In this document: one piece after another, positions 26,400 through 58,888 of the stretch
Layout of the letters: each line of letters opens with the position of its first letter
How positions within the stretch are numbered: the stretch's first letter is position 1
DNA from: Hydrolagus affinis
Taxonomy: Eukaryota
Direction: 5' to 3'
Assembly: GCA_012026655.1 (NCBI GenBank)
Contig: JAAILG010000533.1
Coordinates: forward strand, 1 to 64,000
DNA length: 64,000 nt
Program-made: the position numbers and the translations under genes
The notes under the pieces: model-generated
What the model saw: the letters and a program-made list of their open reading frames with translations, nothing else
The model's database searches: none
Told to the model about the DNA's origin: nothing

Positions 26400-27250
26400 A
26401 TAGTATAAAACACCGAGCTGACCCTGAGGGTGGGGGCGGTAAGGAAGGAGCTCCTGCCCTCCCTGAAGGCGGTTGAGTTTGGTTCCTCCTCTTGTTTTTG
26501 AACAGACAATGCTTCGCTCTGTTAGCGTCACGCTCCTGAGCATGCGCGCTAACATGTTCTGGAAATTTCCCTGGCTGTTCAGAGGCGCTCGTGCAGGGAA
26601 TATAGGACAGACGCACAGGGAGAGAGAGACACAAGATAGACAGAGAGACACACAGGGCAGCGAGAACTGCTAATAAATAACTCTAGCAATTATAATTCAA
26701 AGAAAGAAAAGGACTGGAGAGAGACAGAGAGGGGTGAGGGTGGGGGAGAGATGAGAGGGAAGGTTTCTTTCAACTGATTCCAAAAGAAAATGCAATCTGG
26801 TAATTAAAAGACAACCACCACCTTACTTCCGGAATGATCTTTGGAGTCTAAACGCTGTTCACTGAGCCGATGTTTTGTGTGAGAGGATCAAGGCCTAGTC
26901 TGGTGGCTGAACATAACCGGAGTTAAATCGTTTAAACAGCGCGATTTTTTTCCCCCCCTCTCTCTTTATCTTATTTGCTGCGGTGACTTACTTGTATCAG
27001 CGGTCCCCTTCTTAAAACCATGGTGAAGAAGAATACTGTCCCCGATGGGTAAGTATGATGAGTCTTGACGATTTAGACGGATTTAGTTTACAGAAGTAAA
27101 AATATTAGGTGAGTCCAGGGCCTGAAATATCTACCAACAACAGGGTAAGTAACGAGCGTCGCCATGTTAACGCGGTGATTAAACAATGATTTGGTAAGTA
27201 AACGAAACCCCTTCACCATTGTAAGTATCGACGTTAGTAGGAGTTTCGCA
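26400..27250. promoter_or_regulatory. CpG-rich shared (bidirectional or overlapping) promoter region of CC2D2B and the DUSP11-like gene
   Basis: Local CpG enrichment; NRF1-like GCATGCGCGC near 26540; ETS-like ACTTCCGG at 26825; X-box-like GTCGCCATGTTAAC at 27158-27171; minus-strand donor-like sites at 26826 and 26991; plus-strand ATG at 27020. Confidence 0.6.
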
Positions 27251-36200: not shown

Positions 36201-39200
36201 GATAAATGGCTCAAATGAATTTTGTACTTCGAATAGTACTGTATGCAAGCAATATGTAGTTTAATACAGTTACATGTAATGTGATATTCAGTATATTAAA
36301 ACAGTGCTCCCTAAATAAGGTAATTAATGATTGACTAAGAATTTTCAGTTAGTGTAAAACTTTATAAAGTGGATCAAAGCACTGGAATGCATTTCAGCAG
36401 TGTTTAACTAAAAGAAAGTACTGTTCTAACTTTGTAGAAGTAATTGAAAAGGCTATTTTGGGAATCCAGTGTGCAGTTTTAGGCATCCTAGTTTCAAAAG
36501 GACATTGATGCAGTGGAGAACATATTTTAAAAAAAAAGTTCTAAATTGTCAAACGTTACAGAAACGAATTTATGGTGGGGAAGAAAGCTGATGGAGGACT
36601 TTGTCCCTTTTGATAATTCAATCAACATTAAGCAGACTTGGCCTTTATTTATAGAATTGTAGTTGGTGGTCTAAAATTAACGAGTGACAAAGTTAAAGAC
36701 AAAGCTGGAGATATATGAGGTGAAATACAATTTTTTTTAGAGCAGTGGATATATAAAAGAGACTTAGTAAATTTAGTTGGTAATGTCAATTTAAACTTTC
36801 AAAAAGATTTGAATTGAAGGTTCGCTGCACATTCACAAATTTGCATACAAAACTTAATTATATATTTCTGCAATCAACAGAAATGTGCACAATTAAGGAA
36901 TGGGCATGGATAGCCAGGTTTATTTGATCTAAATTGGAGAGGAGATTGAGGAGAAATTGTGAATGATAGTTCTCAGGATGAGAGGGGAGTTTGAGGTGAG
37001 AAGTGCTTACCAACTGAGTAAACTAACATTGGAAGGATGTCATAGTGCTTTGACTATTCAAAAGTTAAAAAGTAAATCCAATCCTTGACCCATACTTAAC
37101 AGTAAATGCACAAAAATGGCCATTAATAGATAAATCTAACCAACCAATGTTCAAAAACTACAGTTTATGTCACCCTTGTTCTGAAAGAACTGTCCTTATA
37201 ATGGTTTTAAACAGAAATGCACTGAGAGGAGATCTTTTGGAATTACAGTGGTAAACGAAGCCATCTTGAAAAAACACGTTTAAATTAGATTCAAAGTTTT
37301 GATATGGAAGTTATTAGCTCCATATTACACTGACCAGATTGTGACCAGAATATTGAAAGAGGGCTGAGCTATTCGCATCCTAAGAAATGTGCCATGTTGT
37401 TTCCTTTATTGCTTATCCACCAAACTTAGTATCAGAAAACAAAACAACAGTGTTTCTATATCGCATTTCCAAAGCATACTTTATATCTTACGTAAATATT
37501 TTACTGGCTTCACATGTCAAAAATTATTTTGAAAGCTGCTACAGAAAGTCTACGGGTGGTTGGGGTGTTTGTTTTATTAATAATAATAATCATTGCCTTT
37601 GGTATAGCGTTATCACATCATCGGGGACGTCTCAAAGTGCTTCATAGAATGCAGTGAATTGACCATATTTTGTGGACAAAACAATGTAGCCAATTGTGCA
37701 CAGCAGAGTCCCATACACATTCGTGTGACCACATTTTTTTAAGTGAATATTACCCGCAGAAAAGAAATCTTCAGATCGACTAACAACCAGGTTCCTACTT
37801 ACTGCTAGATAAACAGAGGCTGTGGAATAAAGAAACTTGCCCAACATTTCACGTTGGAGAATCAAACCCAGGTCTTCGTGCAGTTCTAACCACTATGCTG
37901 CAGAATTCCATGACAATATATTCAATAACAAACTGAAATATTTTGAATTGCAAAATAAACCCACACCAGAAGCTAGTAACTCACTACATGAAATAAAGTA
38001 GTAAACTGTGCCATATGATGCTTGTTAAGGTTACTCAAAATTCACAGCACAAATTTTTATGTAAATTAGAAATTGGGGTTTGTGGTAAATAAGTGCGAGA
38101 TTCCAGGATCATTTGATTCTGTATTCCATGTTCTCCATTTAAAATCCAAAGGGTTGATCACTTATTAAAATTAAGATCTGATCAGCGCCTTGGGACATCC
38201 TCTCGATGTGAAAGGCGCTATATAAATGTAAGTTTTGATTGATTGATTGATTGATTCATACAATGCCAGCTGAAGTCAAATCTCGGAAAAATGGATATTC
38301 ATTTGTATTATAACCATTTTGGGGGATTGAATTAATTCACTTATATGAATTGTCAAGGTGTATTTCCTAACATTTTGTCAATATTGACATCAGCTCTACA
38401 TCTGTAGTTATAATTTATGGATTGTTCAAATGATCTAATCATAGCAATCAATTAAATATATTCCAGTGATGGCAAATTAGGTGGATTGCACAGTTAGGCT
38501 ATTGACAATGTATCTGTTCATTTGGCAGCTACCCAGTTTACTTTCTGGGGCAATCCCAGGTACAGTATAAATGTCAGTCAAACTTAATAAAATATAGGTC
38601 ACTGGTACAGATGTAGCACATCACACCAAGCTCTTCAAACCCTTCCTAGTGGTACAGGTATTTTGTAAATGATTACAAAATGCATCAGTTTTGAAGATGA
38701 CGGTGTTTGTGTCATTGAGAAATCAAGCTATCTTACTAACAAAGGTGCTTTTTGCTTATATTGAACATTCTAGCAAACAAAAGCTTAAAACAAGATAGTC
38801 TACTGTAGTAGGCACAAAAGTAGGCAACATTTTAAATAGAAAGATGTGAGTAATTAAAATTGAAAAAAATCAAATAAATTCAAACTAAGGAGATGTAAGC
38901 CAAGGACCCATCTGCTTCAGGTGGATGTTAAAGATCCCATGTTAAACTTTTTTTGTTCATTTCATCTTAAGATTCTATCAAAATTGTTTCCTGTAATCTT
39001 AACAAATGTTGTTGTTTGTCTTGTCAACATGAGGGAGAGAAGAGGCTTCACCAAATTCTTCCTCATTCCATTGTCTTTGGAGTAGCAGTAATCCACTTTG
39101 ATGGGACAGATTCCAGTTAATACTCCTCACTTTGTGACACTGGCGATATTAGCTCCTGGTTTCTGCATTTACATTCAGTACTATGGATCCTGCCAATTTT

Positions 39201-42200
39201 TGTCTCTATGTCCTGTTTCTACACAGAATTGTAGCAGCCTTGTGCCCCACGTAGCATTCACTTCATTTCTAATTGCAACATCTGCAACAAAATTACACTT
39301 GTATAGCACCTTTCACGTCAATTAAGTTGATTGTGCAAACATTCCTATGATATGAAAGGTGATACTTTATACACATCTATATATATACACACTATATACA
39401 CACAGTATAACAGTAAATGTAAATTGTACAGTGATAACATAAACCTTGTATTAGGTTGATTTCGACCATAATTGTTCTGTACCAAACATAGGATTATACT
39501 TTGCACAGAAAAGAATGGTGTTATTCTTTATACAGTAGATAGTTATTAGATACAAGTGAGTGCAGGTTCACTTAAGACTGTTACAATAAAGATAAAATTT
39601 GTATTTTCCATAGGGAGGAGATGTACACTATTTGGTCTTTCAGTCCCACATCTCAAACTTCCCTACTATAATTTCATCTTTTAGTCTGATGATTGACTGC
39701 TTTAGTTAAGAGAATTAAGAGATAATTATCTGATGCTCAGAGACTTACATATCCCCTAACTATCATTTCTAGCACTATACAAAAACATAGATTGAAATTG
39801 ATGTTAATTATGATGACTACCAACACCAATATTTTAAAAGACCTGATTTAAACTGTTTTCTGATCTACTGAGATCAGTTTCAGTGGAAAAAGTATTGCTC
39901 GGGTTCATTCTCAGTAAATTCTTTATTAGCTCATTGCCACAGCCTGTGCCAACATCAGACATGATTGCTGTCCCCTAAACTACAATCTTACTGAACCTTG
40001 GCCACGTTTTCAGTTCAGTCTCTTGACCATACCTCGAAATATAACACTGAGCATCAGATGATTTTACTGCCAATAGTTAAGAAACAATTAGCAGAGTCTG
40101 GGCTATGGAAGTTATTGTTTTGTAGAGAGCACATGGGGTTTTGATCCTTTTGAGTTTAAATGAAATATGCCACTGACAATGCCAAAAGAAAAGTCCCAAG
40201 TCTTCCAGGAAATGTACTTTACTGGATTTTACTGAGCAGGAATGTTTATGGGAGTTGGCCTCCTCCCAGGCATAATGGGTGATGTTTTCTCAATTGATTT
40301 CAAATTTATTTTGCTATTTTCTATAACCAAGCATCAGATGTGAAATAATACAGATAGCATTATTCAGGCAATGAATAACCGCAGAAGTACCCCCATTTTA
40401 AAACTGAGAAAAGACAGGAATACTGAATCCATTTTACTCTTCTGGTTGGGCAAGCTATACCCCAAAAAACAAGACAACCAGTATAACTGGCAGCAGCCAC
40501 ATTCTATTGTCTTCAGATGCGAAATGAAGACCTAGTTCAATTGATATTAGCTACTGCCTTCTTACAATTCTATCTCCTAAGGAATATCTCCCACCAGAGC
40601 AATTGCTGTAACCTAAATAAGAATAAATTAACTGCTTACAAACCATCCTCAATAATTGCTTAGCAAATGCACACTATTTTATATATATTGTGTATATATA
40701 TATAATATATATTATACTTACCAGCCACGTAAAAGGCATTAAGAATGCTTTGAATTAATTAGAAATTGTAATCAAAGGAATCAAAATTGTAGCAATAGGA
40801 TATTACATTTGTCTATCTTTATTGTTTTGCCTACCCCAATTGCTCGCAATGATGTCTTGGGAATCTGATTAGAAAGTGCACATGAGGGCAGAATCTGACT
40901 CTTGTGATTTCCCCCCCAATCACCCCCCACCCCAAACTCCCTGATCAATTTCACATTCAACTATTTACATATTTGCAATCGAAGGAGGGGAAACGTGTTT
41001 TCAATTATTCTTCCAACCCCCACTCAGGATTAACAAATACTATATTATACTATAAACTAGGCTGTTTTCTTATGGATTATTGTATTCAGGTGTGTGAGTA
41101 TTGTAATATAATTAGATTTTATTATGTATTAAATGTCCAGATCACAGTTTATTTTGTATGCGAAGAAACACAATTTGTCACAGAATAACCAGCATGAAGT
41201 GAATAATGAATTTTGGCTGGAGGATTGATTCACTCCAGGATACTAGGGAAAATTGATCTTTCTTTGAATAATGCCGTGGGATCTTCAACATTTCTGAACA
41301 GCAGACAGGACCTTCAATTAAAATCTCATCCAAACCACAGGAACTCCCATCAATAGAGCAGTCTGCTAGCAATGCATTGATGCGTCAGCCTAGATTACGA
41401 ACTAAATATATTGGATCACTGAGGTGCTCAATGTAAATCAGGCTACTCATTATAAACTTGTTTGGAAAAAATGACATCTCGCTTCCAAATAAAACCGTTT
41501 GCTTTCTTCTGCTGGGAACTTTATTGTAATTGATGAGCATGTACATTTCTGGAGCTTTTTTGGACCAAATTCACTTTATAATAGATGACTGCTATGCAGC
41601 TATTGTTGTATTATATGTCATCTTCAGTTCTTCATTTTTATTCTATTCTTCCATTTCTGTGTAGAAAATAGCCATTTTAGCAATGCAGAACAGGTTAGAA
41701 AAATGTTACCTATGGATTGTGGCCCAAAATAAACCTTGTTAATCTTTAGGGTACAATTATTTTGAAGAAAGAGTTACAACTATCCCAGAGGCAGTTTACC
41801 TCTACCATCATCTACCATTGTGAAAAATTAAAATTTTTCTTCCTTGCTTCAACTATAAACTCGTTTACATGGCATGTCAAAACGCATCCCCAAATTTGTG
41901 TTCCATATCCTTTTGTAATGCTTCACTAAGAGAAATAATGGTACGTGTAATGTTCACGTGTCTATTAGATCACATTCTATATAGATTTTGTGTACAGTAT
42001 TTGGTTTAATGTTGCTTAGTGTCCCATTTTCACTAAATCTAAATTTGCTGTTTCACTTGGCTGCAAATATTATTCTTCATATCTTCAAGCAATCTCTTGT
42101 ATTCTAAGCAGGAAAAGCTGAATTTGGTCAACGTTTACTTGCTTTTATTTGCTAGTATGGTTGAAGGGAGGAAGACTCACAGTGATTAAAGTGTATTCAA

Positions 42201-45200
42201 CTGGAGTGTTATAGCAATGTGCTTTAAAATTAGTTTGTGTGATTCATTTAATGACCATAACAAATTAGTGAACCATATATCTTACAAAACCTTTCCCCCC
42301 ACCCCCCTATTTCTACATAGATGGAGAGGTATTATTCCTGTTGGAAAACGTCTGTCGGGAACTAGATTTGTTGCTTTTAAAGTGCCTTTGAAAGGGGTAA
42401 GTATCCTTTGATCCTTTATATTTAAAATGTTATAAAATTTAACTGTTAAAGGTAAACTGACATCTTCCACTCTTTTCTCACCCTTCTCCAGAAAGTCAAT
42501 TTTTCCCCTAGTCAAGTCAACTCAAAAGTCAACTCAACCATCATTAGTCTAGTGTATTGCCTGGTGTAAAATATGTTATATCATTTCATAATCTGGGTAG
42601 GCCTGCAGCAGAAAAAATCTTTTCCATTCCATAAACTGTGCTGGATATTGTTCCATAGCATGTTCTCTAGTGACTTTGCACAAATAGCTATTTGACAGAG
42701 ATAAATATGTTAATCATATAATACTTTGTTCCATTCTTTATTTTACAGGCAATAAGCCAAAGGCTCACAGCAAAGCAGAAGTTTTCTCCAAAAGATCTTA
42801 TAGCTAAGATCAAAGAACAGAGTGAGGAGCTTGGATTAATTGTTGATTTGACGTATACAACTCGCTACTACACAGAAAAAGTAATATAGATAGAGTTTAC
42901 CTTAAGCACAATTGATGATTATTACATTGACTTTTAAGTTGATATGGCTTCTAAAAATATTTTGTGTATTTAGGATTTGCCTAAAAGTGTACAGTATAAA
43001 AAACTTTATACTGTGGGGCATGAAGTTCCAGATGATGCTACCATTCTTCAATTTAAACGAATGGTCAGAAAATTCTTGTGGGAAAATGCAGATAATGGTA
43101 ATTATTCATTTTTATTAATTGAATAATCTGTAGTTTGTTATGTCTATAGGTATCAGTGCAGGTAAGCAGCATTTTTGTGTGGGAGGGTGGAGAACAGTGG
43201 AAGGACAATCCACTTTTTATCATGGCTGGTGCATTTTGCATAAATTCTGAAGTTTCATATGCAATTCTCTTGTAATAGTGAGAGTTGCTGCCTTTCATGA
43301 AAAATATTTGGATATTCACTTCTCATCTGTTTTACACTATAAAGTACATCAGTAATATAATGCCCTAAACAAAGATTTCAGGACACTTCACAGCAACAGT
43401 GTCAGTGTCAGATGCCAAGCAAGGTGGGGGTAAGCGAGGGTAGAAGTGGTTGAAGAGAGATTTATAGGTGGGGTTTAAGGCAAAGTACCATTGCAAGGGG
43501 TAGAGAAAAGGGGTACCAAAGGGTTTAGTTGCTGAAGGTTCAGCTTCAAATACAGTAAAACCTTATTTATCTGGTACCCAACCTACCGGCATACTCTACC
43601 AACCGGTATCTCCCAATTGTATTGACACTCGTAGTATGCTCACTTTGCGCATGTGTGGCGCATGCGCAGTTATTAAACTTGCCGAACGCTGGAATGCTTT
43701 TTTACCGATCATTTTACCGAGTGTGCTGGAATGCTTTATTGGTAAGTATCCATACAATATTCTGTTATTATTTAGTCTATTATTAATATGGTATGTTTTA
43801 AAATAAGTTAATTTTTTTGTAGGATTTTTGGCAACTTGTCACTTGACTATGCGGCATATTTAATTAACCGGCACCGGGGCAGGTCGAGGGTGCCGGATAA
43901 CAAAGGTTTGACTGCATAGCGATTTATTGAATGGTGACTGCATTGGCACTTGCAATTACTTTTTTCTGAAGAATATGTTGTAAATATTTTGTTGAAAAAT
44001 ATTTAGGAATTTTGCTGAAATTCATTTGTCAAATGTGGTCAAATATTTAATATTTTAAAAATCTGTATTCTTGTATACAGGGTTATTTTTCCAGTTGGAA
44101 ATTTTAAGATTTCAAAAGAAATCTGTATTTTAACATATTATTTGGAATTTATTTTTAGATGTTATTATTGGAGTTCATTGTACCAATGGAGTTAATAGAA
44201 CTGGATACCTTATCTGCAGGTAAATATTGGCGATTTTAAAAGTTTTCAAATGTTCAGTTGGGGTTAATGCAGTCAATCTTTCACACGTTGATTTACAAAT
44301 TGAAAAAGTGTCAGATTTTAATAAAATTAGAGAGCTAATAAAGGAGGTATTAACATTGAGAAATAGTTTATGATATATCTTTGAAATCCTACATAATTGT
44401 AACTTAATATAAATGTCTTTTGCAAACCAAAAAGTCATTACCTGTCAATGTTATTTTGGATTGAACTAATCCTTTTTATATTCCCAAATCAAGGTACCTA
44501 ATTGATGTAGAAGGAATGGAACCAGAAGCTACCGTTGAGCGTACGTACTTTGTATGTTCAGCCCTAAAGACATTTATTTTCTATCAAAAAAGTTAAACAC
44601 ACAAGTGACACATCCTCGTCCTATTTATTTTAAGTTTTCAACATAGCTCGTGGCCACAAAATGGATAGAGCTGTATATCTGACTGATATTCGAAGAGGAC
44701 CAATGAGAAGGTGATTTTGCAGATTTTCTAAATTATTTGATTTTATTATACATTGTTCTGAAACATTGTACAGGTGGACATTGAAAATTGTATGGAACTA
44801 TCCAAAAACAGAAGCCAGTTTTCCTGGTGTCTTGGCCAATAATCCCCTGTTAAATTTGTCATTTACTTTGTGGCTATTGTTAGCTGTGTGCTTATGGTTG
44901 TCACATAAGCCTATGAAATACAAACTCACTGCACTTTGCAGTATGAAGTGTTTTCAGATGTCTTCCCTATATAATGAAGGCAAGGATAAAATCTATTGCA
45001 ATCTAGTGAAAAATGCACTTGGTCAATTTTAGTTGTTTTATGATTAGTAACTCAAGTGGAACATAGTGGTTTTGTATAGAAAATATAGAATATTAAATAC
45101 TGTACTGTAATAAGATATGGATTTCTTTAATTTAATTTTTACATTTTCTTTAATTGAAATCTGTTTATTTTTGTGGCTACTCACCATCATCCTATTTACA

Positions 45201-48200
45201 GCTAAAAGAATTGGGATGACCTAGTTTGTGGTTTTCTATTCCTCTATCTTTCTTGCTGTGTTATTGAGTGGGAACGATTTAATCTAGATTAAAACCAAAT
45301 GGGAATGTGCTACAATTTGTTTTGCTTTACTCACTGCTATTTGCTGGCTTATGGTTGTCTTCATCACAAGCCTACTTTACCACAGAGTCCTTGGAACATT
45401 TTGAGTCTGTATCCTCTTTATCTTGAGCATGTGTCCTCTTATCTTTCCTTCACAAATATTTCATCAAAATATTTTGCGAATTTTTTACTTGTTCAAAAAT
45501 AAAACAAATTTCAGTAAATTCCATGCAAGAATTATGGGCGGTTAAGTTTAGAATTGACACTAACCTGTACTTTCTTACCTTTGATTATTCTTTTGCAGTA
45601 ATTTAGGAATGGACGTATTTGAACGAGAACCATCACCAATGGATCCATTTTCGCCATATTCATATTCACGTGGTCCAAGACCTCTACTCGATGATTATCC
45701 AGGGTAAAGAACCAAATCTCCTTTTTTATATATAGTGTAGAGAAAATCATATGAAGTACTGTACTTCAAAATTGTATTTTGGTAACTGGTTAATTTTAAG
45801 CTATATTTACAGGAGAACATGTGGGGGAGGAGGAGGATGGAAATACTTAAGCCTTTGGACAGCAGTCCTGTTGTGAATGTCTGGTCTGCTGCTAGTGAAC
45901 AGACATTTTATGAACATATGTAGATAATTGAGGAAGGAATTGGTTATTTATAGTAACTATGAAGTTGTAAATCTAGATTTGGAGACTCAATTTCGCATCA
46001 TAACCATTACTTTCTTTACTGTTCCTAACCAGTATGGATTTATGTCATGTTTCCCATTTAGCTCTGAGATGTGGCTGGTAAGTGGTAAGAAGGCTTCTGC
46101 CCACACTAATATTATCCTTTAATTGTCTAATACAGTATTTGCAAACAAGCCTTACTCAAAAAATCATACTGAACTTTTGTAATCTGCAAAATGTGGCTTT
46201 TCAATTGACTAGTTTGTGGTTTATTTTTCTCTTTAAATTTATAGTTTGTGTACAGAAAATAATAAAACAAATGATTATTGCTTTTCCTTTCTCCTGAATT
46301 CAGGCCTGGTTCAAGACATGGGCCATCTCATGGACGCCTACCTCTTCCTTCTCGAGACTTTGATGCACCCCCTTATAACAGGTGGCATGACAGGTAATTT
46401 CCATTTAAGGCTTTACGGTTTTATTTCAATTGTTGCTTTTGTATATTTTAAGATTGCATATTAATGCTAAGTCTAATATAAATAAGTATTATTCAAATGT
46501 GAGAATATCAACCCTGTGAAATTAAAACACTTAAAATACAATATCCAGTATTAGCTTTCCCCATTTCTCTCTTTCACTCTTCCTGTCTTTTATTTTAGTT
46601 TTTTTTTCTGTTTTCTTTGTTTTTTTTCTTAACAGCTAACCTTAAAATACTTTAATACAGTGGGTTGTTTTTTCTCTCTCTCCCTGTCCGTTTTAGGGGA
46701 GGAGACAAATTCCAGCAAGGCTTCCATTAGCTGAAAAACAGCTCGAAAAGCCAGTTTTCAGCCAATGGTAAGTCCGAGCATTGAAGATTGTAAAAGCAAA
46801 GCAGGTCAATTTTGCAATGTATAGCAAACTTTAAAACTACATTAATTTTTAACAGATATATTTAATAAATTCCAGCTACATCTTAGATTGTATTTCCCAG
46901 GGTCTGAAGGAAATTTGATTGGTAGGATGCTTTCTGATTGTGATGCTTGTTTTTCAGTGTTATTATGGTTGCACATTATACATTATTAATGTCTTTATAG
47001 TGTCATGTTTTGCCCTCCTCCACCCACTCCTGTGTCTCCCGAATCAAAATGACAACATGGCCCAGCTCTTGAACAGCATTGCAAATAATAATTGCTATTT
47101 TTGGTTGACCTTTGAAGAAACACACTTAATTGCAACATTCTTCTGTAAGAAAACAAATGAATGTTTCTTTTTGGGGGCGTGGAGTGCAGGCAGAGATTAA
47201 TGTGAATGTTATTGAAATTAGAATGAATGTTTGCTTGATTGACCAGTGTGTATATTAGGAAAAACTGAACTGCTATTATTTTTTTTCTGAATGTTGTGCA
47301 TATAAAAAAAATGATTTAAGCATTTGCCGAAGGATTCCACTCTGGATCAAGTACAATTAATCCACAGTTAAAAGATTTTTTAAATGAAATTTATTTCTGA
47401 AATTTGTTCTCGATAATTTAATTTCTAGACCAAGACTTCTTCCTCCACCACTTCCACCTCCTCCTCCTTCATTTCTTTATGGTGAACGCAGACTGCTTCC
47501 CCACTTTGATGACTATCCTCCAGAGGAATATAATGAACATTCAAGGTACTTGAGCATTAAAAATGTGAATGAGTCAAACTGGATATTGGTTTTGACACGA
47601 AAAGAGATGCAGAAAAACCTATATATGCAGTAAAAGCCCATTTATCTGGCACCCTCGGGACCTGGCCAATGCCGGTTAACTGGCATGCCAGATATTCAGG
47701 GATCTGACACCGAAAAACCAACACAAATTTTTTAAACTTATTTTAACACATACCATATTAATAATAGACTAAATAATGACAAATAATAACAGACCTTTGT
47801 TATTCACCTAAAAATCACCTTTGCTGGTAGATGCCTGGTTTGAAGCCATAATACTGGGGTAGAAGTGTGCAGTCTTATCTTCTACAATGGCCGACGTGAG
47901 GGAAAAAAATGTCAGCGCGACTTGAAGGCTCTACTAGCGGCAAGCCGAAATACCGATGCGAGGGGGAAAAAATGCGCCACCGCGATTATGCCAGATAAGA
48001 TCCGGTTATTCGAATGGGGACCTTTTTGTTTGAGGTGCCGGTTATACAGAAGTTACGGTTGATCGGGTCACAGATAAATGGGCTTTTACTGTAACACAGT
48101 TGCATTTGAGTGATTTGGTTCTTTTCTGATCCCCCCCACCCCCCACTTGCCCCCAGGTCCAACCATTTCAACGAGCACAGAGCGATACGTAACTCAGAAG

Positions 48201-48463
48201 AAAGTCCACGTATGCACGCTAGATATGCACCATACTCCAACAGACCACCGGCATCTCAAGATCGTTTCAGGGCCGATTTTGAGAGGAAATCGTATTCCAT
48301 TTCAGGCAGAAGAGAATTAGAACCACAGCGGACTGCAAGTTTCCCGGCTTTTACACGTGATTATAATCATGGTCATCCAATTGACCATGGTCCCAGCCCA
48401 CGTGAAGTAGATAGCAGTTGCTATCATAATTTTGATAGATTTCATGAGTATGAATGGAACTAA
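27020..48463 (+). CDS. DUSP11: DUSP11/PIR1-like RNA 5'-phosphatase (RNA/RNP complex-1-interacting phosphatase-like), 387 aa, probable DUSP11 paralog
   Basis: Exons 27020-27048, 42321-42396, 42749-42880, 42974-43097, 44159-44219, 44494-44540, 44635-44710, 45599-45703, 46304-46393, 47429-47545, 48157-48463 (1164 nt, GT-AG, phases consistent). Protein: MVKKNTVPDGWRGIIPVGKRLSGTRFVAFKVPLKG..ELGLIVDLTYTTRYY..VGHEVPDDATI..GVHCTNGVNRTGYLICRYLIDVEG..ARGH..EYEWN*. The symbol denotes the family; orthology to human DUSP11 is doubtful. Confidence 0.88.
30150..30820 (-). mobile_element. Penelope-like retroelement fragment (degenerate GIY-YIG endonuclease and 3' end)
   Basis: Minus strand near 30820-30695 reads FQVRQRFKCPTTNAVYCIQCTRCL*IGETKCRLGN*FAEHL, a VY..YIGET..RF.EH GIY-YIG pattern. 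The terminal CTGAGTGTTCCCAG..TTTCTGTTTTT motif is shared with 54390-54590 and resembles 60420-60550. Confidence 0.75.
33076..33350 (+). mobile_element. tRNA-derived SINE, full length
   Basis: GGAGCTCAGTAGTTAGTGCACTCGCCTTG..GGGTTCAATTCCAGGCAGGGCGAAACC.. plus family tail. Confidence 0.85.
34208..34421. mobile_element. Tigger-like MITE
   Basis: Terminal inverted repeats TAGTAAAAGCCCGTTTATCCGG / CCGGATAAATGGGCTTTTACTG, flanked by TA. Confidence 0.85.
34630..35408 (+). mobile_element. L2 LINE 3' portion
   Basis: Degenerate ORF2 C-terminus (AEILIHTFITSGLDYPNALL) followed by the family 3' tail. Confidence 0.85.
37580..37909 (-). mobile_element. tRNA-derived SINE, diverged
   Basis: Reverse complement of the family head, core and tail. 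Confidence 0.7.
43553..43914. mobile_element. Tigger-like MITE
   Basis: TIRs CAGTAAAACCTTATTTATCTGG / CCGGATAACAAAGGTTTGACTG; internal sequence shared in reverse orientation with 47628-48091. Confidence 0.8.
47628..48091. mobile_element. Tigger-like MITE
   Basis: TIRs CAGTAAAAGCCCATTTATCTG / CAGATAAATGGGCTTTTACTG followed by TA. Confidence 0.85.
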
Positions 48464-49501
48464 ATCACTAACTTTAATGTACTGTATATTCAACTTTTTT
48501 ATTTTGAGTATGGTAAAGACTTCTCATATATTTCATTACAGTTCTAGGCTTTTACCATGCAGCTTGTTTTTCCAAAAATGAATATTGAAGGACCAGAATT
48601 CCTCTAAAATGCCTTTTACTTGTTACATGGACATAGAACTGTGTAGATGTAAAGATGTGTTGGTTTTATTAGTATGATGTAAGATGAAAGCAGAAATGTA
48701 CACTAATTTTTTTGTAAATTCAGTATGAATATAAACTCATTGTCTGTTTCCGGTTTGTTTCTTGACTATCCAAGCACAACTGATTGTAGACTTTTTAAAA
48801 AAAAAAAAATCATCAGACTTTAAGTGTATCTAATATTGTACATTGCTTATGTGGCAGGAATTCACTGTCTATTGCAAATGATCAGTCAACTTTAATGTTA
48901 TGTTGTACATAAACAGAAAGGCAATATACAGTACTCTGTGAAAGGTTACTGCTGTAATGCTGTACAATTCGTACTACCGATCAAGTTGATTTTCATCATT
49001 ATAATATTCTAAATTGACCAAATCAATGAGCTAGCCCTGCTGAATTTCATAGAGACTCACTAATCAAGTCATATTACAATAAATTCCTTAAAATAAATCA
49101 GACTGTGCAATTTTTTTTTCTTTCCCCTCCCCAGAGTCTGGTTGACTTTGGTTAGATGGGCTGTGATATCACACAGGAAATGAAGCTTCAGCAACAAGCT
49201 TCCACTTTGCACCTATAATGGAAAGCATCAAAAGAATCTCAAATGTATTTGAATTCTGGTAAAATAAATCAATAAATTGTTGAAGCATACTGCTTGTGTG
49301 CATGCTGGTGCATACTATGTTAATCTAGAAAGGGTGGAATACAGAAAGATAGAAATTATTCTGTAATACCATTTTATAAAATTTATGATTACTCAATTGT
49401 GGAAAATTCTCAAATTCTGTCTTAATTTGGAAGCAGATTCTTTTTAAAAATTGCAGAAAACTTTTAGGTAAAATTAATGAAGAAATCACGTCTGACAAGC
49501 C

Positions 49502-52500
49502 CTAGAATTTTTCAAGAAAGGCACACATAGGGTCCTCTGGTCTCTGACGCTTTATCTTGTAGGTTTCAATTTCTGCTTCCATTGATTGCTTGCCATCATG
49601 CATGCAATTGTAAGGCCGTTTTCTCTCATCTAGTTTCATTAGCTCATCCACTTTCTTTAACTGTTTTCCCTCTGCGGAAAGAGCCTACAAATAAATTGAA
49701 TGGAAAACACATTTTAAGAACAATTATTTAGTTTACTTTTTTTATTACAATTTTTTTTAATCTTCAAATGCTAAAGCAACATACATAGTCATTCCACTTT
49801 CATTCCACATTCTGTAAAGTGCATAAACATTTACTGAAGGGAATATGGGGAATGTAAAACTATGATTTGAAAAATTAGTACACTGTTCAAAGAGGGACTA
49901 ACTTCCAGTGAACATTCAGTTGTTGAATGTTGTTTGACCACACATGGAAAACCTTCTTGAAAAGTCATCAGGTCCATTATCTCCTGCAAAAAAACACAAT
50001 TTACCATTAAGTAAGCTGGCTTGATTTTAAATATAATATGCAATTTCTATGTACATTTTCATACCTGTGCTTTTCTACCACTTTCACCGGAACAGTATGA
50101 ATGCTTGAGAAAGGAATGGCAGCACTTGTTTCCCCAATTTCCATTTTTCCAATATGAACCCCATACAGTCTAAACAGGAATAACAGCATATTTGGTTAAC
50201 AAAACATGCCACAAAACATGTGATTATGTAAAGGAGCAGAAGTGAATATTAACAAAATATGTTGAGCTTTAGGGGATTGACCGTGAACTGGGGAATTCTC
50301 ACATTGATAGCGAGTTACAAAACAGGATGTAGTAAACTAACCACACATAGGTCTGTAACATTTGTTACAAAACTATCGTTTAAATCTTTGCATGATTGCT
50401 TTAACTAATTCATATCTTTACAAGATTAGACTATCATATGTCTACAACATTAGACCCTCTTGGCAGAGTTGGCTTAGCTTCAGGAAGCAGAAACATCAAA
50501 CATAATCTAAATCAATGTTCTGTTTTACTATTATTAATCCTACAATACAATTGTGAAATACATCGGCACAAAAAATCTTGCCTACTGTATGATTGTTAAT
50601 GTACACATCCTCTTCATATTTTGACTTAGCAGTAGCCTTCAAATGCCTTTGAATGAGCAATCCATGCTTGGAGTATTCTGTGTACTCCTCGGTCTGACCC
50701 AACAACAGCATTCTTGAGGGTGGTTCCAAATAATCCTGCACTCCATACTAAAACAAAACACCATTTCATCAAAAACACTTGTCTTTTTTTCCTGGAATAA
50801 ACTTCTTTTTAAATGCAATATTTCAATAGTGTTATTACCTCAAACCCCTCAACAGCTTTGGGACATCCTCCCAATGTAAAATACACAATATAAATGCAAT
50901 TTATTGTTATTGCTAAAAATGTAATAGAGTAAGAATTAAACTGCACACCGACTTGCCTTTTCAATAATGCTTTCCCGTTGACCCTTTTTAAACTCTTCAT
51001 CTTTTATTACGAATGATTTATGCAACATCTCAAGTTTGGTGGGATCTGACTGGAGATGCACATCCACTCCATGCTCGTAGGCTTCCCAGGCAAACACTTA
51101 AAGAGAATCAAAAGTGTGGATTCAGGTATAAATTACATATGGTACGCAAGAACGAATGAGATTCACTTAAGTTTCATACATACATACATTGTGACTGAGT
51201 CATCATGGAGACGTCACCCATTAATCGCAAAACATTTTCAGCAATGTATCCATTTCTAAGAAAATACAAATTCATGTCAACATACTTTGCAAAATCATAA
51301 TGTACCCATACACTGTCCAAGGTTATGAACTGCAGTGTTACTGACGCAGAAGTTGATTAATGGTACGTATTAGCTGTTCTCAGAGAATGCAGTACTGTGG
51401 TAGGTTTGCTTCCATTTGCCTCACTGTCACTGATGCTACAATGTGACAGTGACAAATGTTTTAGCCTAAAAATAGAGCCATAGATTCTGCTCTTGATTGC
51501 TTATGTAGTGCTTAGTGATTGAGGTGATTGCTTATCCAGTGCCTTGGGACGTCCTCCCGACATGAAGGGTGCTCTATAAATGTAATTTTGTTGTTGTTGT
51601 AGTGGCCCTACCCCCACCCCCCGATTGTAAGATGCACATGAATAGTGACATCAACAAGGTGTGATTTTAATGGCGGAAATCCTGTTAGAAGCTGACATTG
51701 CCAAATCATATTGTTTTTAATGAGGATTTTTTTTGGTCAGGCCTCCTGCTTCTGATTGCTGCTCATTGTTATTGTGCCATTCAATATCAAGTACTTTCAG
51801 GCCAGTTATCACCAATACTAAGAGTCAAAATGTTTCATTGTCTTGCAATGACCACCCTTATATTTTAAATAATAAGACACTTTTTTTCAAGAGAAGGCTA
51901 TCCACATATGAATAAGACATCTAATTTTAGGTCTACCTGTTTGAAGAACCAAAATATATTTTTTTACATTCAAACATTCTATCGAAACCATCCATAAGAA
52001 ACATGAAAACAAAATCCTAAAAACACACTCATTGGGTTTCTTTCCCGAATATGGGTTCTCTCTCATTGATCTGGAGTAGGGGTCGTAATAAGCAGAGTTC
52101 AAATCCAGGTTCTTCAGGTACTGCGATTAAAAAGGCAAAATTAGTGATTAGCATTATTATGGGAGACCGCTGTGCTCAATTGGTTGCTGCATTTCTCCCA
52201 CAGTCAATTAACTTTACAATGTATTCTGTGAAGCACTTTGAGATATCTCGAAGACCTAATAAGGCTCTAAATCAAATACAAGAATTATTATTATCAATAA
52301 TTGGAGAATTTTAAAAAGAATTTCTAACTTGAAATAAATCTACCAACCTTAGCTGTATCTTCACGGATTCTGAGATTTCGAACAGTAATTCTCATTTTGG
52401 AATCTACTTTTTGCCCAGGCATATCAAACTCATCTGCATATTTGTCTTCATCCTTATCCTTGGCATCTGCATCCTGAAGGCGCAATACAAATACAGTGAT

Positions 52501-55500
52501 TAATGTCATCACCCAATTACTAAAATACAAGTAACCTGCATTAATTCGGGAGGGAGATTGTTAACTGAATGGAGGGGGCCATGGATAGAGCCTTAAGGTA
52601 CACCACAGGTGACTCTGATAGGGGAAACCATTTGTGGAGACAAAGTGTAAAACATCCATTTTACTTTTAATCTCATAAAACCCAGGATGAAGATAGATTA
52701 TTGTCCAAAATACAGAATAACATTTAATGGTATAAATTACCTCTTCTTCATCTTCCTCCTTCCCAGGACTGATTTGCTTTAGGAAAAAAAACATTAAATT
52801 ACACAATCATTTACATTTCACAAAAAGATACCTGCATCCAGATAAGAATTAAGATACAATTCCAGTATAGCAACAAAATCAGCGGTATTTGCTGATATGC
52901 AACACTCGCTAAACATGTTAATTAGCTAAAAGTTTATTTAAACCTTTGAAATGCAGGGAAACTGTTGGAATTAATTTTCGCATAGTACAAGGGACTAATA
53001 TTTTAATAATATTAACTTTTTTTTAAATGCAGGTATGCAATAAAGGATTATTTTACCAATAAACTTAATTCTGCTTCAAGATTGATTGATTACCGACACT
53101 AAACTGCTAACTTTGGAGCAAGGACAAATCAGAATTCTGATTTCAAGACATGTTTACACTAACAAGCAATGCTTATCCCATTTTAGAAAGCAAATAATCA
53201 ATTCAAAAAAATATTCACCACTGATTTGAAATAGGTTGGTAAGTCTAGGATAAATTTGACTGAAGTCTGGACAGATGTAGAATCTAGAAATTGCAGAAAA
53301 AAATATATTTCGTTAAGAGTTCACAAATACTCACCACTTTGTTTGGTACATTGTCACTTGATACCCCTTCCTGGATTTTCCGTGTTTTTAACTGTCTCCT
53401 AGTCTGCCATGTAAAATCCAGATATGAATGAAATTTTTACACATGTAGTTTGATAAAACACCCATATTTTTAACTGAGGCCTTGAGCCCAAATTAATCCA
53501 ACAGAAAGGAAAAGAATGTAATTATGTATTACAGGTGACAAAAGCAAGATTTAACTGTAAAAAAAAGTAAGGCTTCCATAGAGTTTGTTTTAATGTGAAA
53601 TCAATGTATTTATTTTATTATTCAAATTATTAATTAATAATAGATTTGTTCACAATATTTTAGAAAAATATGAAAGATTTGACTGCAGAATTTATTTAAT
53701 GAGAGACCAACGGTTATCAGAAAAATAAGACATCATTCTTCAGGACTAGTACAAAGACAAGACAGTAATTGAACTAGTAACAAATAAATGAATATTTCTG
53801 AAGTTTTTGAATTGCTCATTTCCATAGTTTCCTTACAATGTCAATTTTTTCGTATTCTGCTATGATCTTCTTCTGTTCCTCTGGATCATAACCATTCCAC
53901 TTGTCTCTTTTGCCATCATAATCAAGGAATAGCTGTGGCTGAGTGTACTCATCTGGAGCTATATTTGTTGCAGTGTACTTTGCTCCCACTTTTCTCGGCC
54001 TCTGCAAGAGTGCATTTATTTTCAGAATTTCCCATGTTACTTTATCTAAATCTCTCTTGTGATGTAAAGCCAGAGATAGAGAGAGAAGCCAGACGGATGG
54101 AAAGACAAACGGAGAGATTGATGGAGAGACAGATGGAGAAACAGAGCTGCACTGGCATGGTGTGTGGGGAGAGAAGGGATATTAATATGTGTGGGCTGAG
54201 AGAGTATACAGTACAATAGTAACAGTACAAATCCTGATGGAAGAAATTTTGGTTAGTGCATTTCATTTTGCACAATGTTCACTGATTTTGTATCAACAAA
54301 GATGCCAATTAGGGAAGGTAAAAGTCTCTCAACAGACATTTCAAAAATCCTATTTAACTTCTAGCTTTGCCCAACTCTAGCTGTACTTAAAAAAACAAAA
54401 ACTGCTGGGAACACGCAGCAGGTCAAACAGCAACTATGGAGAAAGGGAAAATGAAGCAACGTTTCAGGTCCACGACCCTTTGTCAGAACTGTCCACAACG
54501 AGTCGTGGACCCGAAACGTTGACTCACTTTTCCTTTCTTCCTAGATGCTGCCTGACCTGCTGAGTGTTCCCAGCAATTTCTGTTTTTGTTTCAGATTCAC
54601 TAGATTCACTAGACTAGGTACAGAATGCATTACAAGCACTCAATATCCTGTCCAGTGAATGCTTTCATTTCAACTAACCGTTTATCCAATTTCAACACTT
54701 CTTAACGCCCACAGAGAGCAGCAGCAGCATGGGTTGACTTCAATAGAAAAACTGCAGAGGACAACAAATGTAAATGAACATACATCTAAACAGAATAGCT
54801 GAATTTTTGTAACCTGCAAATTAATAAAAGAAAACGGAACCGCCTACCTCCATACATTCTTTCTTCGCATGTGTAATAGCACCACAATTTTCACATGCCC
54901 CTCTCCTGTATCTGGTTGTATGATTACACTATAAAAAACAAAAATGTAACTTTTCTGAAGAAGCTACCAGGTTTATTTTTACTGTACGTTTTTCCCATTA
55001 GCAACTTTGTATTCATAAGAGAAATATCTGGACAGGGAAGAATTAAGACATTGTTTATGGTTACACGGTACTTACATGGTATAACAATGAATGATTATGT
55101 AGTGTAGCAGATATTTTATATGCAATTTGCATTTATATAAGGTATTCTGCAAATACTCACCTTCAAATCGTGTATATACCAATCTTTTATGGTATTATAG
55201 TTGTATTGTTTCTCCAGGTGAGGGCGTTGATGCTTCAGAGAAGGTGTGTTTGTGCTGTCTACATACCATGGTACAGTTGAAATATACTCAGGAATATGTG
55301 GATTTATATCCCTTTAATTGAAAAAAGATTATTTCACTCAAAAGCTAAAAAAAAAGGGGGCAACATCTGAACATAATTGTCAAGTTCTTTGAACATAAAT
55401 TTGGTTTTGACCAAAATGGTATTGATGCATACAAAATGAATAATTAATCTAATCTAAAGAAACTCTCGCTTTCACAATCTTAGAATGTCCATCTACAAAA

Positions 55501-55846
55501 TACAGTCACTCCACTTTATGGTAACATTTTATTGTTCTTATTATTAATAAGATTTTTCAAAAACGTTGTGAGCCACAAAGATTTGTAAAGAATGGGCTAC
55601 ATTTTAACCAAATAGCAGCATTTAAACTAAAATAAAGACATTGAAATAGCAGTATCAAAATAAAGTCACCCATCCTCTATCTTAAATCATCTTCAACCAG
55701 AAATTAAATATGAATTACTTCCCATCTTCATCTGTTTCAGCTGGTACCAAGCCCAGCTTTCTCTGTTCTTCTACGTCTTTCTTTTTTCTCCGAGCTTCTT
55801 TTAGTCTTTGAGCTTCAGCAGATTCTGGCAAAGCGGCAAATGCCAT
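49502..55846 (-). CDS. SLU7: Pre-mRNA-splicing factor SLU7-like protein, divergent paralog, 528 aa
   Basis: Exons 55846-55719, 55311-55161, 54928-54848, 54001-53837, 53403-53335, 52776-52741, 52473-52348, 52120-52029, 51255-51188, 51096-50957 (GC donor), 50747-50586, 50169-50065, 49983-49903, 49684-49502 (1587 nt, open). Peptides: EEQRKLG..DINPHIP, zinc knuckle [73 protein letters not shown]. The symbol denotes the family. Confidence 0.9.
54391..54590. mobile_element. Inverted pair of Penelope-like terminal fragments
   Basis: Arms at about 54391-54477 and 54501-54590 are imperfect reverse complements (CTGCTGGGAACACGCAGCAGGTC / GACCTGCTGAGTGTTCCCAGCA). Confidence 0.7.
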
Positions 55847-57639
55847 TTCAAAAGGGCTTCTTCCCAATCACATCAGAAATTGGCACAAGTCGATAACTGT
55901 ATATGCTTCATTTCTAAGATATTAAAGAGAAAGTGGGGAGAGAACAAGTTGAATAATTCATTGTGAAGCGCCACAAAATAAATACTTTTGTGAAATAAGC
56001 ATGACAATAACATGAACAAAATTTGTATTACAGTATTTGGGGCAAATCTACTCTATATTATGTCTTGACGACGTGATAAGGCACTATATCAAATGCAAGG
56101 ACTATTAGCGTTATTATTATACAAATTCAATTTATATAATTTAAGACTCTGTTCAAACAGAGATTTTTAAAACATAAAACAATAAAGTAACACATTTAAT
56201 TGCACAACAAGATACTGTATAACTACTTACCTGACATAAGGCACCAGTTCCAGAAGGCATAAAGTAACACCAAGCAAAAAATTATTCAGAATAGCATATA
56301 TCGCAAAGCCAAGCAACAGCCCTACTGAGTAATCTGCTGCCCATATGAACTTGGCATGCAAAAATCAAACAAATGGGTTGAGAAGTACAACCAAAAAATT
56401 AATCAAACTACAAGATTGCTGAGTTCGTGCTAGGCTTATTGGGTGCTTGGCAACAACACTGGTTAAGTTGAAATAAAGCTATTAGTTGAGAAATATAAGC
56501 AAATTAAATAACTGAACTTGAACCACCAGACATAAACAACAATTGGGGAGATAGGCTTTTGTGCATCCTTAACATGAACATTTACCTGCAGTTTTTAATC
56601 TTTTTAGACAAACATTTTTGCAAACTCCTTTGGAAACTGACGGCACCAAAAGCAAGGCTCCAAGCAGCAGTAAGAAGCTTATGTAACTACTCGTAACCCA
56701 TGATGCTACTTAATAATTTTGTTGCTGCTTTTCAAGGTTGCCTTGAGATTTTATCTTCATTGTTTCTTCTTGAAAAGGAAGTTAATATTGTTCAGGTTAA
56801 TTTAAAACAAGATACCCGGATTGAATTTTAAATAAAATATTATATAATTTCTAGCCACTTTCAAGTTTATTGTTGTCTTCTAAGTGATATTTTGATTGAA
56901 AACTTCCATATAGATTTGTGGGCTTGAGGACAGGGCACTTGCCTTCAGTTACCCCAGTGGAGGAGCTACTACCAACATTGACACTATAGACCAAATGGAT
57001 TGCTTATGTGCTGCAATATGTTCCATGTTTGAATATAATTTTTTCCAATAACATATTTGCCCCGGCCCCAAAATACACTCCAATGAATTACACCCCTCAA
57101 CATAGGGCATAGTTTATTGCTCTTTCTTAAACATGCCATATTTATGAGCAAATAAAGTCAATTTCAATGTCGCATGAAAATCAGGGAGATGATGCTTGTG
57201 AAATGAGGTTCAATGTGCCTTTTGTTCTATGAAGAATGATTAATCTTTTGCTAAAACAGTGGCACTCTTGAGTTATGTGTAGGCAAGTATTCCACAATAC
57301 AAAACTCACTGTACATTGAGATAAAGCCGAATGCAGAGTGAAATAAAGCCCAATGTACTTCAAGTTGAAGCTTAAAATACACTGGGCAGAATCCAACCAA
57401 TCCATGAATATGACTGTTCTGTATAATCCAACTTTAAAGCTTTACGAGGAGTTTATGTATTATTTTTAGAATAGGGTGATGATGCATCACATTCTTCAAC
57501 ATAAGGGCAGTTTTAAGTACAGTATAACAAATTGTCAACTGACATCAATTTCCTACATGTCTCTTATTACATAGTCTAGCTGGTTTAGCTAGTTATCAGA
57601 GTATTACTGAGTTCTACAGGAGCTTCAACATCCACCTGA

Positions 57640-58020
57640 ACGCGAATGCAGATTATTAAGGGGTAAAACAGAGTAGATAGTGGGAGACTGTTTCCCCTGG
57701 TTGGAGAAACTGTAACCAGGGGTCACAGACTGAAGATTAAGGGTCAGCCCTTTTGCACTGAGTTGAGAAAAAATTTCTTCATTCAGAGGGTAGTGAATTT
57801 ATGGAATTCTCTACCCCCAAAGGGCTGTAGATGCTCAGCCCTTAAACATATTAAAGACTGAGATTGATAGATTTCTTATGGATAAAGGGATTAAGGGATA
57901 TGGTGATAAGGCGGGTAGTTGGAGCTAGAATAGATCAGCCATGATCTTATTGAATGGCGGTGCAGGCTCGAGGGGCCAAATGGCCTGCTCCTAATTCTTA
58001 TGTTCTTATATGTTCTTATG
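57640..58020 (+). mobile_element. CR1 LINE 3' end
   Basis: Degenerate end of ORF2 (TRGHRLKIKG..RKNFFIQRVVNLWNSLP) and terminal TTCTTATG repeats. Confidence 0.88.
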
Positions 58021-58084
58021 AGAGTATTGCCCTTTATGCATCACGTTGGAAGTTGCTGTCATGTCACAGAGGAGCGACGTGCAG

Positions 58085-58180
58085 CCAACCAACCATCCAA
58101 CCCAACTAACTAACCATCCACCCAACTAACTAACCATCCACCCAATCAACCAACTATCCACCCAACTATCCAACCCAATC
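58085..58180. repeat. C/A-rich tandem repeat, about 20-bp unit
   Basis: CCCAACTAACTAACCATCCA repeated with variants. Confidence 0.8.
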
Positions 58181-58235
58181 TACCGACCAATCATGCCACC
58201 CGACCAACTCAGCACCATGTCATGTCGCTGCTCAC

Positions 58236-58888
58236 CGCCAGGCGGCTCCTCGGTGGCTTGCCAAGGCAAACGGCGGCTCTCGGGAGAGACGCCGATCTCG
58301 AGAGAGACGCCGATCTCGATTGGTCGCCGGGAATCGGCGCGCGACCAATCAGAGGCGGGGAGGCATACTAGGTAAGAATAAATGCAAGATGGCTCCTCAT
58401 ATAAAACCAAACGCCGAGCCGCTCCGCCCGCCTCGCAAAAAAGCACGATTTTCGGCCGTTTTTAAATACCCTTTTCTGTTCACACCGTGTCCTGAGGGTC
58501 AGCCGTTCAAAGTTTGGTACCTAGTCGCATTTTTTTTAAAAAAGGGTCATTTTTTTTCCTTTCACCCGAAGAGAGAGAGAGAGAGTGTGGAAAAAAAAGG
58601 TGGTGGTGGTGTAATGGGGGTGGGGGGAGAGCTCTCTTCTCTCTTGCCACGAAGAGATGAATTAAAGCGCCGTCTCGGGGCCTGAGCTGCGCGGCCTGGT
58701 CCAGATCCAGGATATCCAACCAGTCGCCTTGGCCTTCAAAGCGTGTGTGTGTCCCCCCCCCTCCCCTCCTCCTCCCCGGCAAATGGTGGGATAGACAGCG
58801 GCATCGAACAGGGTTCGCAGCGAGTCGGCGGCAGCGGCCTCCCTTGTTTCTTTTTTGTTCATTTTATTAAATGCAATAAAAAGTCCAC
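58236..58888. promoter_or_regulatory. CpG-island bidirectional promoter for the SLU7-like gene (minus) and BTAF1 (plus)
   Basis: High CpG density; minus-strand donor GCG|GTGAGC at 58235; TCTCG-n-GAGA motifs at 58278 and 58296; inverted CCAAT pair at 58318-58350; GC box at 58352; YY1-like CAAGATGGC at 58385. Confidence 0.7.

Follow-up and report, generated by a model that had tools for sequence, protein, structure and literature searches.

Does the genome of the chimaera Hydrolagus affinis hold a second SLU7, and from which duplication did it come? The question is raised by the window, a 64,000-nucleotide stretch of one contig (C533), in which a strongly diverged relative of this step-II splicing factor, here termed SLU7b (its protein, B), lies beside BTAF1. 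Core spliceosome genes are thought to revert to single copy after genome doubling, and the retention of a second SLU7 for several hundred million years in a small fish group would therefore be unusual.

Structure of SLU7b and its canonical counterpart

Joining of the exons by coordinate places SLU7b on the minus strand, from an ATG at 55846 to a TAG at 49502. Its 14 coding exons sum to 1587 nt, corresponding to 528 codons and the TAG with no internal stop, and encode an intact CCHC knuckle (C105-x2-C-x4-H-x4-C), which bears out the open 528-aa frame and the knuckle described in the original prediction. The 13 introns measure 81–846 nt; all acceptors are AG, and the donors comprise 12 GT and one GC in intron 10. 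In addition, the Pfam Slu7 domain (PF11708) matches five exons on the contig, each above the curated cut-off. Coding exon 1 (55719–55846) holds the ATG, a shortened N-terminus and the EEQRKLG helix, and is 49% identical to the canonical copy and 81% to the B protein of Callorhinchus milii, and exon 2 (55161–55311) encodes DINPHIP..PWY..LKHQRP. The helix of exon 5 (53335–53403) is 30% identical to canonical SLU7 and 91% to the C. milii protein. Exon 6 (52741–52776) contributes an acidic linker of 36 nt, and exon 7 spans 52348–52473. Exon 9 (51188–51255) is 41% identical to the canonical copy, exon 10 (50957–51096) carries the GC donor, and exon 14 (49502–49684) ends in the stop codon TAG.

From the left, the window contains a CC2D2 gene (minus strand), a DUSP11-like gene (plus), SLU7b (minus) and a large plus-strand gene with its ATG at 58889, which we take from its translated exons to be BTAF1. 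The ATG exon of SLU7b is predicted to extend into a 5' UTR on the minus strand (55847–55913) with an acceptor and a 12-codon upstream ORF, and minus-strand donor-like sites are predicted farther upstream at 58236, 57310 and 56231. A CpG island (58001–58750; CpG o/e 1.03–1.07) covers the BTAF1 start, and together with the donor-like site at 58236 it suggests that SLU7b and BTAF1 may share a divergent promoter; a first exon predicted in this island would, if anything, fit broad SLU7b expression and not the tissue-restricted variant supposed in the original prediction. At the other end, the nearest minus-strand AATAAA (48665–48670) lies ~830 nt past the stop, and the 3' UTR predicted on this basis would run into the 3' end of the DUSP11-like gene.

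A profile search of the genome with the Pfam Slu7 model returned 10 matches, and a primate SLU7 query returned 19 (30 candidates scored), in both cases on two contigs only, C533 and C8339. The gene on C8339, SLU7a, has 15 coding exons and 588 residues with all introns GT–AG, is 82–85% identical to the SLU7s of seven sharks and rays, and lies directly upstream of the best C1QTNF2 match of the genome (69–70% identity, best of 65 matches). C1QTNF2 also belongs to the human SLU7 neighbourhood, and the second, more conserved copy anticipated near human-type neighbours is thereby found. SLU7a groups with jawed-vertebrate SLU7 and adjoins C1QTNF2; SLU7b does neither. The two genes encode proteins of 56% identity, all 13 SLU7b introns occupy SLU7a positions in the same phases, and eight exons are identical in length. 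These common intron positions, phases and exon lengths argue that SLU7b is a DNA-level duplicate and not a retrocopy, in agreement with the intron-bearing retained duplicate proposed earlier.

Conserved and altered parts of the SLU7b protein

Our comparison with canonical SLU7 (human, 586 aa, PDB 5xjc_Z; PF11708; SLU7a) reveals that SLU7b has in common with it the Pfam match, the 13 introns, the CCHC knuckle, the segments modelled in the C* complex and the C-terminal motif. It differs in its overall identity, an N-terminus 15 residues shorter, its chromosome neighbourhood, the absence of the lysine-rich exon and the 24 invariant residues altered in both B proteins. The substitutions in conserved stretches noted in the original prediction are real: 5xjc_Z reads VSYAGDNFVRYTGD and EWYKRGVKE, and for the latter SLU7b has DWYIHDLK.

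The most conspicuous difference concerns the lysine-rich segment (human residues 461–523), which in all 33 canonical animal SLU7s comprises 60–106 residues with 14–35 K/R, as compared with 28 residues and 3–4 K/R in SLU7b and the C. milii B protein. Exon 13 of SLU7b (49903–49983) takes the place of two canonical exons, the second of which is the 114-nt lysine-rich exon, and no remnant of this exon was detected in SLU7b by blastn. New here are the loss of this exon, which none of the 33 canonical animal proteins has undergone, and the changes at otherwise invariant residues described below. The earlier description of the gene had missed the loss. According to a review (PMC9658179), the lysine-rich segment and the knuckle together keep human SLU7 nuclear; in SLU7b the knuckle lies in exon 3 (54848–54928) within a basic NLS region that is 76% identical to mammal and whose basic residues are intact.

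By comparison, the parts that meet the spliceosome are retained. Human residues 62–196 and 265–371 are those modelled in the C* complex (PMC9658179), and both segments are present in SLU7b with one and two gap positions, respectively. They are 64% identical to mammal, compared with 81–85% for SLU7a and 61–76% for four invertebrate SLU7s, and reach 91–93% between the two B proteins. The PRP8-contacting block 238–297 is the best kept: the two B proteins are 100% identical there, and SLU7b still matches mammal at 80%. In yeast, the PRP8-contacting segments are 158–196 and 241–290, the latter located at the PRP8 endonuclease/RNase H interface (PMC12393901). By homology, exon 4 (53837–54001) would supply the PRP8 N/endonuclease-interface segment corresponding to yeast 158–196, and exon 8 (52029–52120) the endonuclease/RNase H-interface segment. 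The latter exon carries a change fixed in the B proteins, YDPK to YDPY (human K288); YDPK is found in the yeast and human structure sequences, and the yeast motif lies inside 241–290. Exon 12 (50065–50169) encodes the WGSYW..CC..YC cluster. Furthermore, the C-terminus of SLU7, which is located at BRR2/PRP8-Jab1 (PMC9984181), keeps its motif in SLU7b. An AlphaFold2 model of the C. milii ortholog was of low confidence and uninformative (mean pLDDT 35.8 alone and 52.5 with a 25-row alignment; pTM 0.18–0.19).

Among the 185 positions invariant in the 33 canonical proteins, 24 are altered in both B proteins; two of the 24 fall within exon 13, where alignment is poor. In a leave-one-out control, which favours rows with close kin, the worst canonical row breaks seven invariant sites. 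Changes private to one B protein number six in the lineage of the window and one in C. milii, a hint that constraint may be relaxing in the former.

Such a pattern could also be that of an ancient copy that is no longer a step-II factor and instead competes with SLU7a for PRP8, or has taken over a side role of SLU7 such as cytoplasmic shuttling, stress granules or protein stability. The loss of a segment that helps to keep human SLU7 nuclear (PMC9658179), the 24 of 185 invariant residues that both B proteins have altered, where no canonical row breaks more than seven, and the change at K288 of YDPK, kept in yeast and human, all point in this direction. We nevertheless regard it as rather unlikely, given that the PRP8-contacting block 238–297 is the best-kept part and that the knuckle, the basic NLS residues and the C-terminal motif are intact. 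Competition and step-II function both predict a kept PRP8-contacting block, and sequence cannot separate them.

Distribution and origin of SLU7b

With one SLU7b exon as query, a Callorhinchus milii protein at 91% identity was the best of 228 hits. This ortholog, RefSeq XP_007894628.1 (A0A4W3JXL9), has 528 aa, shares 469 of 526 aligned residues with SLU7b (89%), shows an identical exon-level layout and likewise has no lysine-rich segment; its best solved-structure match is human SLU7 (E 4.5e-190). It is already known, by automatic annotation only, as 'SLU7-like'. With the ortholog as query, identity stayed at or below 63% in the remaining 119 hits listed (best 120 of 4522). Five B-specific motifs were sought in 382 proteins and appeared in the two C. 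milii records alone. The best 150 hits of a search of 50% clusters included no B-type representative of their own; the four of highest identity come from beetle, mite, chytrid or unnamed clusters. SLU7b thus appears restricted to chimaeras among the annotated proteins that these searches reached. The split between Chimaera and Callorhinchus is dated to ~187 My ago (PMC12952989), the span for which the 89% identity has been kept if the species is a chimaerid or rhinochimaerid, and a crown age of 173 My is given elsewhere (PMC11521621).

A quick LG+G tree built from 40 rows recovers B as the sister group of the 26 canonical jawed-vertebrate rows (SH-aLRT 97). A site-mixture tree of 25 of these rows, from which 5 unnamed, 7 near-redundant vertebrate and 3 outgroup rows had been dropped, groups B with the vertebrates to the exclusion of invertebrates (100/98) and makes it sister to 16 canonical jawed-vertebrate rows (89/85). 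In this tree, built without lamprey, hagfish or amphioxus sequences, B falls outside the jawed-vertebrate SLU7s in 884 of 1000 bootstraps. An AU test rejects the union of B with the canonical copy of the same genome (p=0.012), and a chimaera-only origin of SLU7b is rejected with it. The B stem is long, at 1.06 changes per column compared with 0.13 between the two B proteins, whose tips measure 0.10 (lineage of the window) and 0.027 (C. milii); with this stem and an unstarred key branch (89/85), attraction to the outgroup is possible. The diagnostic sites are ambiguous as to the origin of B. Where all jawed-vertebrate SLU7s carry a derived residue (25 sites), B has that residue at 12, the ancestral one at 3 and another at 10, and at 10 chondrichthyan-derived sites it shares 2 and is ancestral at 3. 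SLU7b and sharks also have in common RRG and a non-Lys residue in the HxKK of the knuckle.

These data leave some room for a copy made at the DNA level in stem cartilaginous fishes, which moved beside BTAF1 and changed rapidly before sharks and rays lost it. A grouping of B with all chondrichthyan SLU7s is not rejected by the AU test (p=0.14), the knuckle states RRG/H-x-KK and E340 are in common with B, and a single loss suffices. We consider this origin unlikely, because B is placed as sister to chondrichthyan SLU7 in only 2 of 1000 bootstrap trees, and because it would then be by chance that the copy reached a paralogous I/Q chromosome and the vicinity of a CC2D2 paralog.

It is mainly the synteny that leads us to prefer an ohnolog of the first vertebrate genome duplication (1R) over such a transposed copy. 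The CC2D2 gene of the window (Pfam CC2D2AN-C2 and DUF5523) lies ~25 kb from SLU7b and is one of two CC2D2 loci in the genome. The other presumably resembles CC2D2A, and the gene of the window was therefore taken as CC2D2B; a sequence-atlas search gave no separation of CC2D2A from CC2D2B. As further anchors, CCNJ and FGFBP3 yielded no match on the contig of the window (0 of 35 for Cyclin_N and 0 of 2 for FGF-BP, respectively). In the little skate, according to the supplement of PMC10115646, Slu7 is on chromosome 11, Btaf1 and Dusp11-1 lie ~50 kb apart on chromosome 15, and Cc2d2a is on chromosome 1, and chromosomes 15, 1 and 11 are assigned to linkage group I/Q, 1-alpha, 2-alpha and 2-beta (SI Table 3). 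These assignments suggest that the two SLU7 neighbourhoods are copies of each other that date from the first genome doubling. In duck, CC2D2A, C1QTNF7 and CPEB2 form one 0.9-Mb block (PMC10875613), and this block allows the SLU7–C1QTNF2 pair and the CC2D2B–SLU7b block to be traced to one ancestral region. The linkage-group evidence is a proxy through skate, as the Hydrolagus assembly is too fragmented for a direct view; by this proxy, the segments that carry the two copies are paralogous and go back to a single ancestral linkage group, as do those of ohnologs of a whole-genome duplication. Our best reading of the tree and the skate chromosome map is thus that SLU7b is a remnant of early vertebrate whole-genome duplication. 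This supports the genome-duplication origin suggested in the original prediction and shifts it from the second round (2R) to, more exactly, the first. The 1R reading requires at least two losses.

Constraint, expression and a possible role

Genomic DNA of a close relative (run X1) covers the region with four contigs over ~6.5 kb and shows 85 other letters. All 12 indels listed between X1 and SLU7b lie in introns, and among the 40 differences listed six are coding (three silent, three replacement); the exon and intron difference rates, among the same 40, give a Fisher p of 0.26.

RNA was assessed in three single-cell runs (X2, X3 and X4) of one sample, covering 27–30% of the reads. In X2, ~69 bases fall in a bin to which exon 13 contributes 69 bases, ~94 in the exon 12 bin, ~20 at the end of exon 11 (50586–50747) and none in the intron bin. 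The bases have the orientation expected for minus-strand RNA and carry the letters of X1 at two places. This coverage fits about two spliced reads in one of the three runs and is only a hint of SLU7b transcription. No exon-specific coverage was seen in X3 and X4 in the 27–30% of reads covered, and no exon joint of SLU7b passed the three-read threshold in any run. The high-depth bins in the RNA runs are all repeats.

A young duplicate confined to chimaeras, or a copy decaying into a pseudogene, would account for several of these features, namely the finding of B-type proteins in chimaeras only among the proteins searched, the longer terminal branch in the lineage of the window (0.10 vs 0.027), the three residue-changing differences among the six coding ones listed against X1, and the near absence of RNA. 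It is nonetheless highly unlikely: the AU test rejects B with its own canonical copy (p=0.012), and the frame is open, the splice sites are intact and 89% identity is kept with C. milii. We infer instead that SLU7b first changed in a rapid burst (stem 1.06 vs 0.13) and then came under purifying selection.

PRP8 domain IV and PRP18 each matched a single contig in the genome. A co-duplicated partner set for SLU7b was rejected on these two partners. Since PRP8 and PRP18 are single-copy, SLU7b would need to rely on the docking surfaces of SLU7a. Our favoured explanation, to which we give slightly better than even credence, is that SLU7b is a likely 1R survivor, intact and common to this genome and the elephant shark, C. 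milii, and a predicted alternative step-II subunit that swaps for SLU7a. The gene would thus have arisen in the first vertebrate whole-genome duplication and would have been retained by purifying selection after early fast change; it appears to have been lost in sharks, rays and bony vertebrates. Judging from the protein sequence, SLU7b may dock on PRP8 surfaces in the step-II spliceosome in place of SLU7a, the lost lysine-rich segment is predicted to give altered, weaker nuclear retention, and changes such as K288Y, G311A and F314V may shift the choice among close 3' splice sites. With rather low confidence, we extend this to the view that chimaeras run two step-II variants: a 1R-derived SLU7b, about half a billion years old, would replace SLU7a in particular tissues or in stressed cells and so redirect the choice of 3' splice sites, an option lost by other jawed vertebrates.

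Variant copies of general splicing proteins are known in NKAPL, ZRSR1 and RBMXL2, which are lineage- or testis-restricted paralogs of spliceosome proteins and young mammalian retrocopies; SLU7b resembles them in being such a copy and differs in having introns and a likely far greater age. A closer parallel is offered by the 68 cases of differentially retained ohnologs of cartilaginous fishes (PMC10115646), in which, as proposed for SLU7b, a single jawed-vertebrate lineage retains a genome-duplication copy, and the chromosomes of this copy and its sister gene are paralogous. SLU7b differs from these in being apparently chimaera-only, and in being a core spliceosome subunit and not a developmental or signalling gene. 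The parts of that supplement searched contain one Slu7 row and no second copy. SLU7 is also absent from the searched supplement files of PMC10927551, PMC3964593, PMC8455134 and PMC8302630 and from the text of PMC12952989, and no publication on a chimaera or Callorhinchus SLU7 paralog, including the C. milii protein, was found in a search that lay outside subscription journals and bioRxiv supplements.

SLU7b adds a further case of ancient duplicates retained by chimaeras only. It represents a natural mutant in which the PRP8-clamping parts are kept, the lysine-rich segment is dropped and residues fixed from brachiopods to mammals are altered, and it could help to show how the individual parts of SLU7 govern 3' splice-site choice and nuclear retention. 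If the two-variant reading is true, SLU7b would amount to a naturally occurring separation-of-function allele of a core splicing factor.

Substitutions in and around the SLU7b coding region

The zinc knuckle region lies at window positions 54848–54928 in SLU7b and at G000:C8339:24548–24628 in the canonical SLU7 of the same genome. Two basic residues flanking the knuckle are altered in both the canonical and the B forms of chondrichthyan SLU7 (RKG to RRG, and HKKK to H-I/V/A/M-KK), while most other animals retain the RKG and HKKK states. These changes may be explained by shared ancestry, convergence or co-adaptation with a partner. N420 and T509 (window 50130 and 49564) are derived in SLU7b of the window's genome, with conserved Tyr and Ala at these sites in the close relative whose genomic DNA was compared with the window (run X1) and in Callorhinchus milii; either recent relaxed constraint or sequencing variation in the window's lineage may account for them.

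Processing signals of SLU7b

The donor of SLU7b intron 10 is GC (window 50948–50956), while the corresponding intron of the canonical gene uses GT. An upstream ORF of 12 codons, read from the sequence (window 55873–55911, minus strand), stops shortly 5' of the start codon and possibly contributes to translational control. At the other end, SLU7b and the DUSP11-like gene are arranged tail-to-tail, separated by ~1 kb (window 48463–49502). The 3' UTRs of the two genes would be predicted to overlap, because reading of this interval places AATAAA signals at 49078–49271 on the plus strand and at 48665 on the minus strand.

CC2D2 and DUSP11-like neighbours

One exon of the CC2D2 gene ([15 protein letters not shown]..) is present in two copies ~4 kb apart (window 18013–18267 and 21964–22146, minus strand). 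Either the exon was duplicated within the gene or the repeat is an artefact of the assembly. The ~15-kb interval between CC2D2 and the DUSP11-like gene (window 26500–41500) contains some coding-looking frames, including 32215–32502 and 32642–32845; a Pfam search of this interval returned zero matches. Cyclin J was sought there and not found, and none of the 35 Cyclin_N matches fell on the window's contig.

The DUSP11-like RNA phosphatase gene adjoining SLU7b (window about 42300–48463, plus strand) has a second copy on a separate contig (L019, G000:C104618:1–1378), with 43% identity between the two over the one exon compared. In little skate, too, the BTAF1-linked gene is labelled Dusp11-1 (PMC10115646). 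The DUSP11-like copies possibly represent a further genome-duplication pair retained in the SLU7b block.
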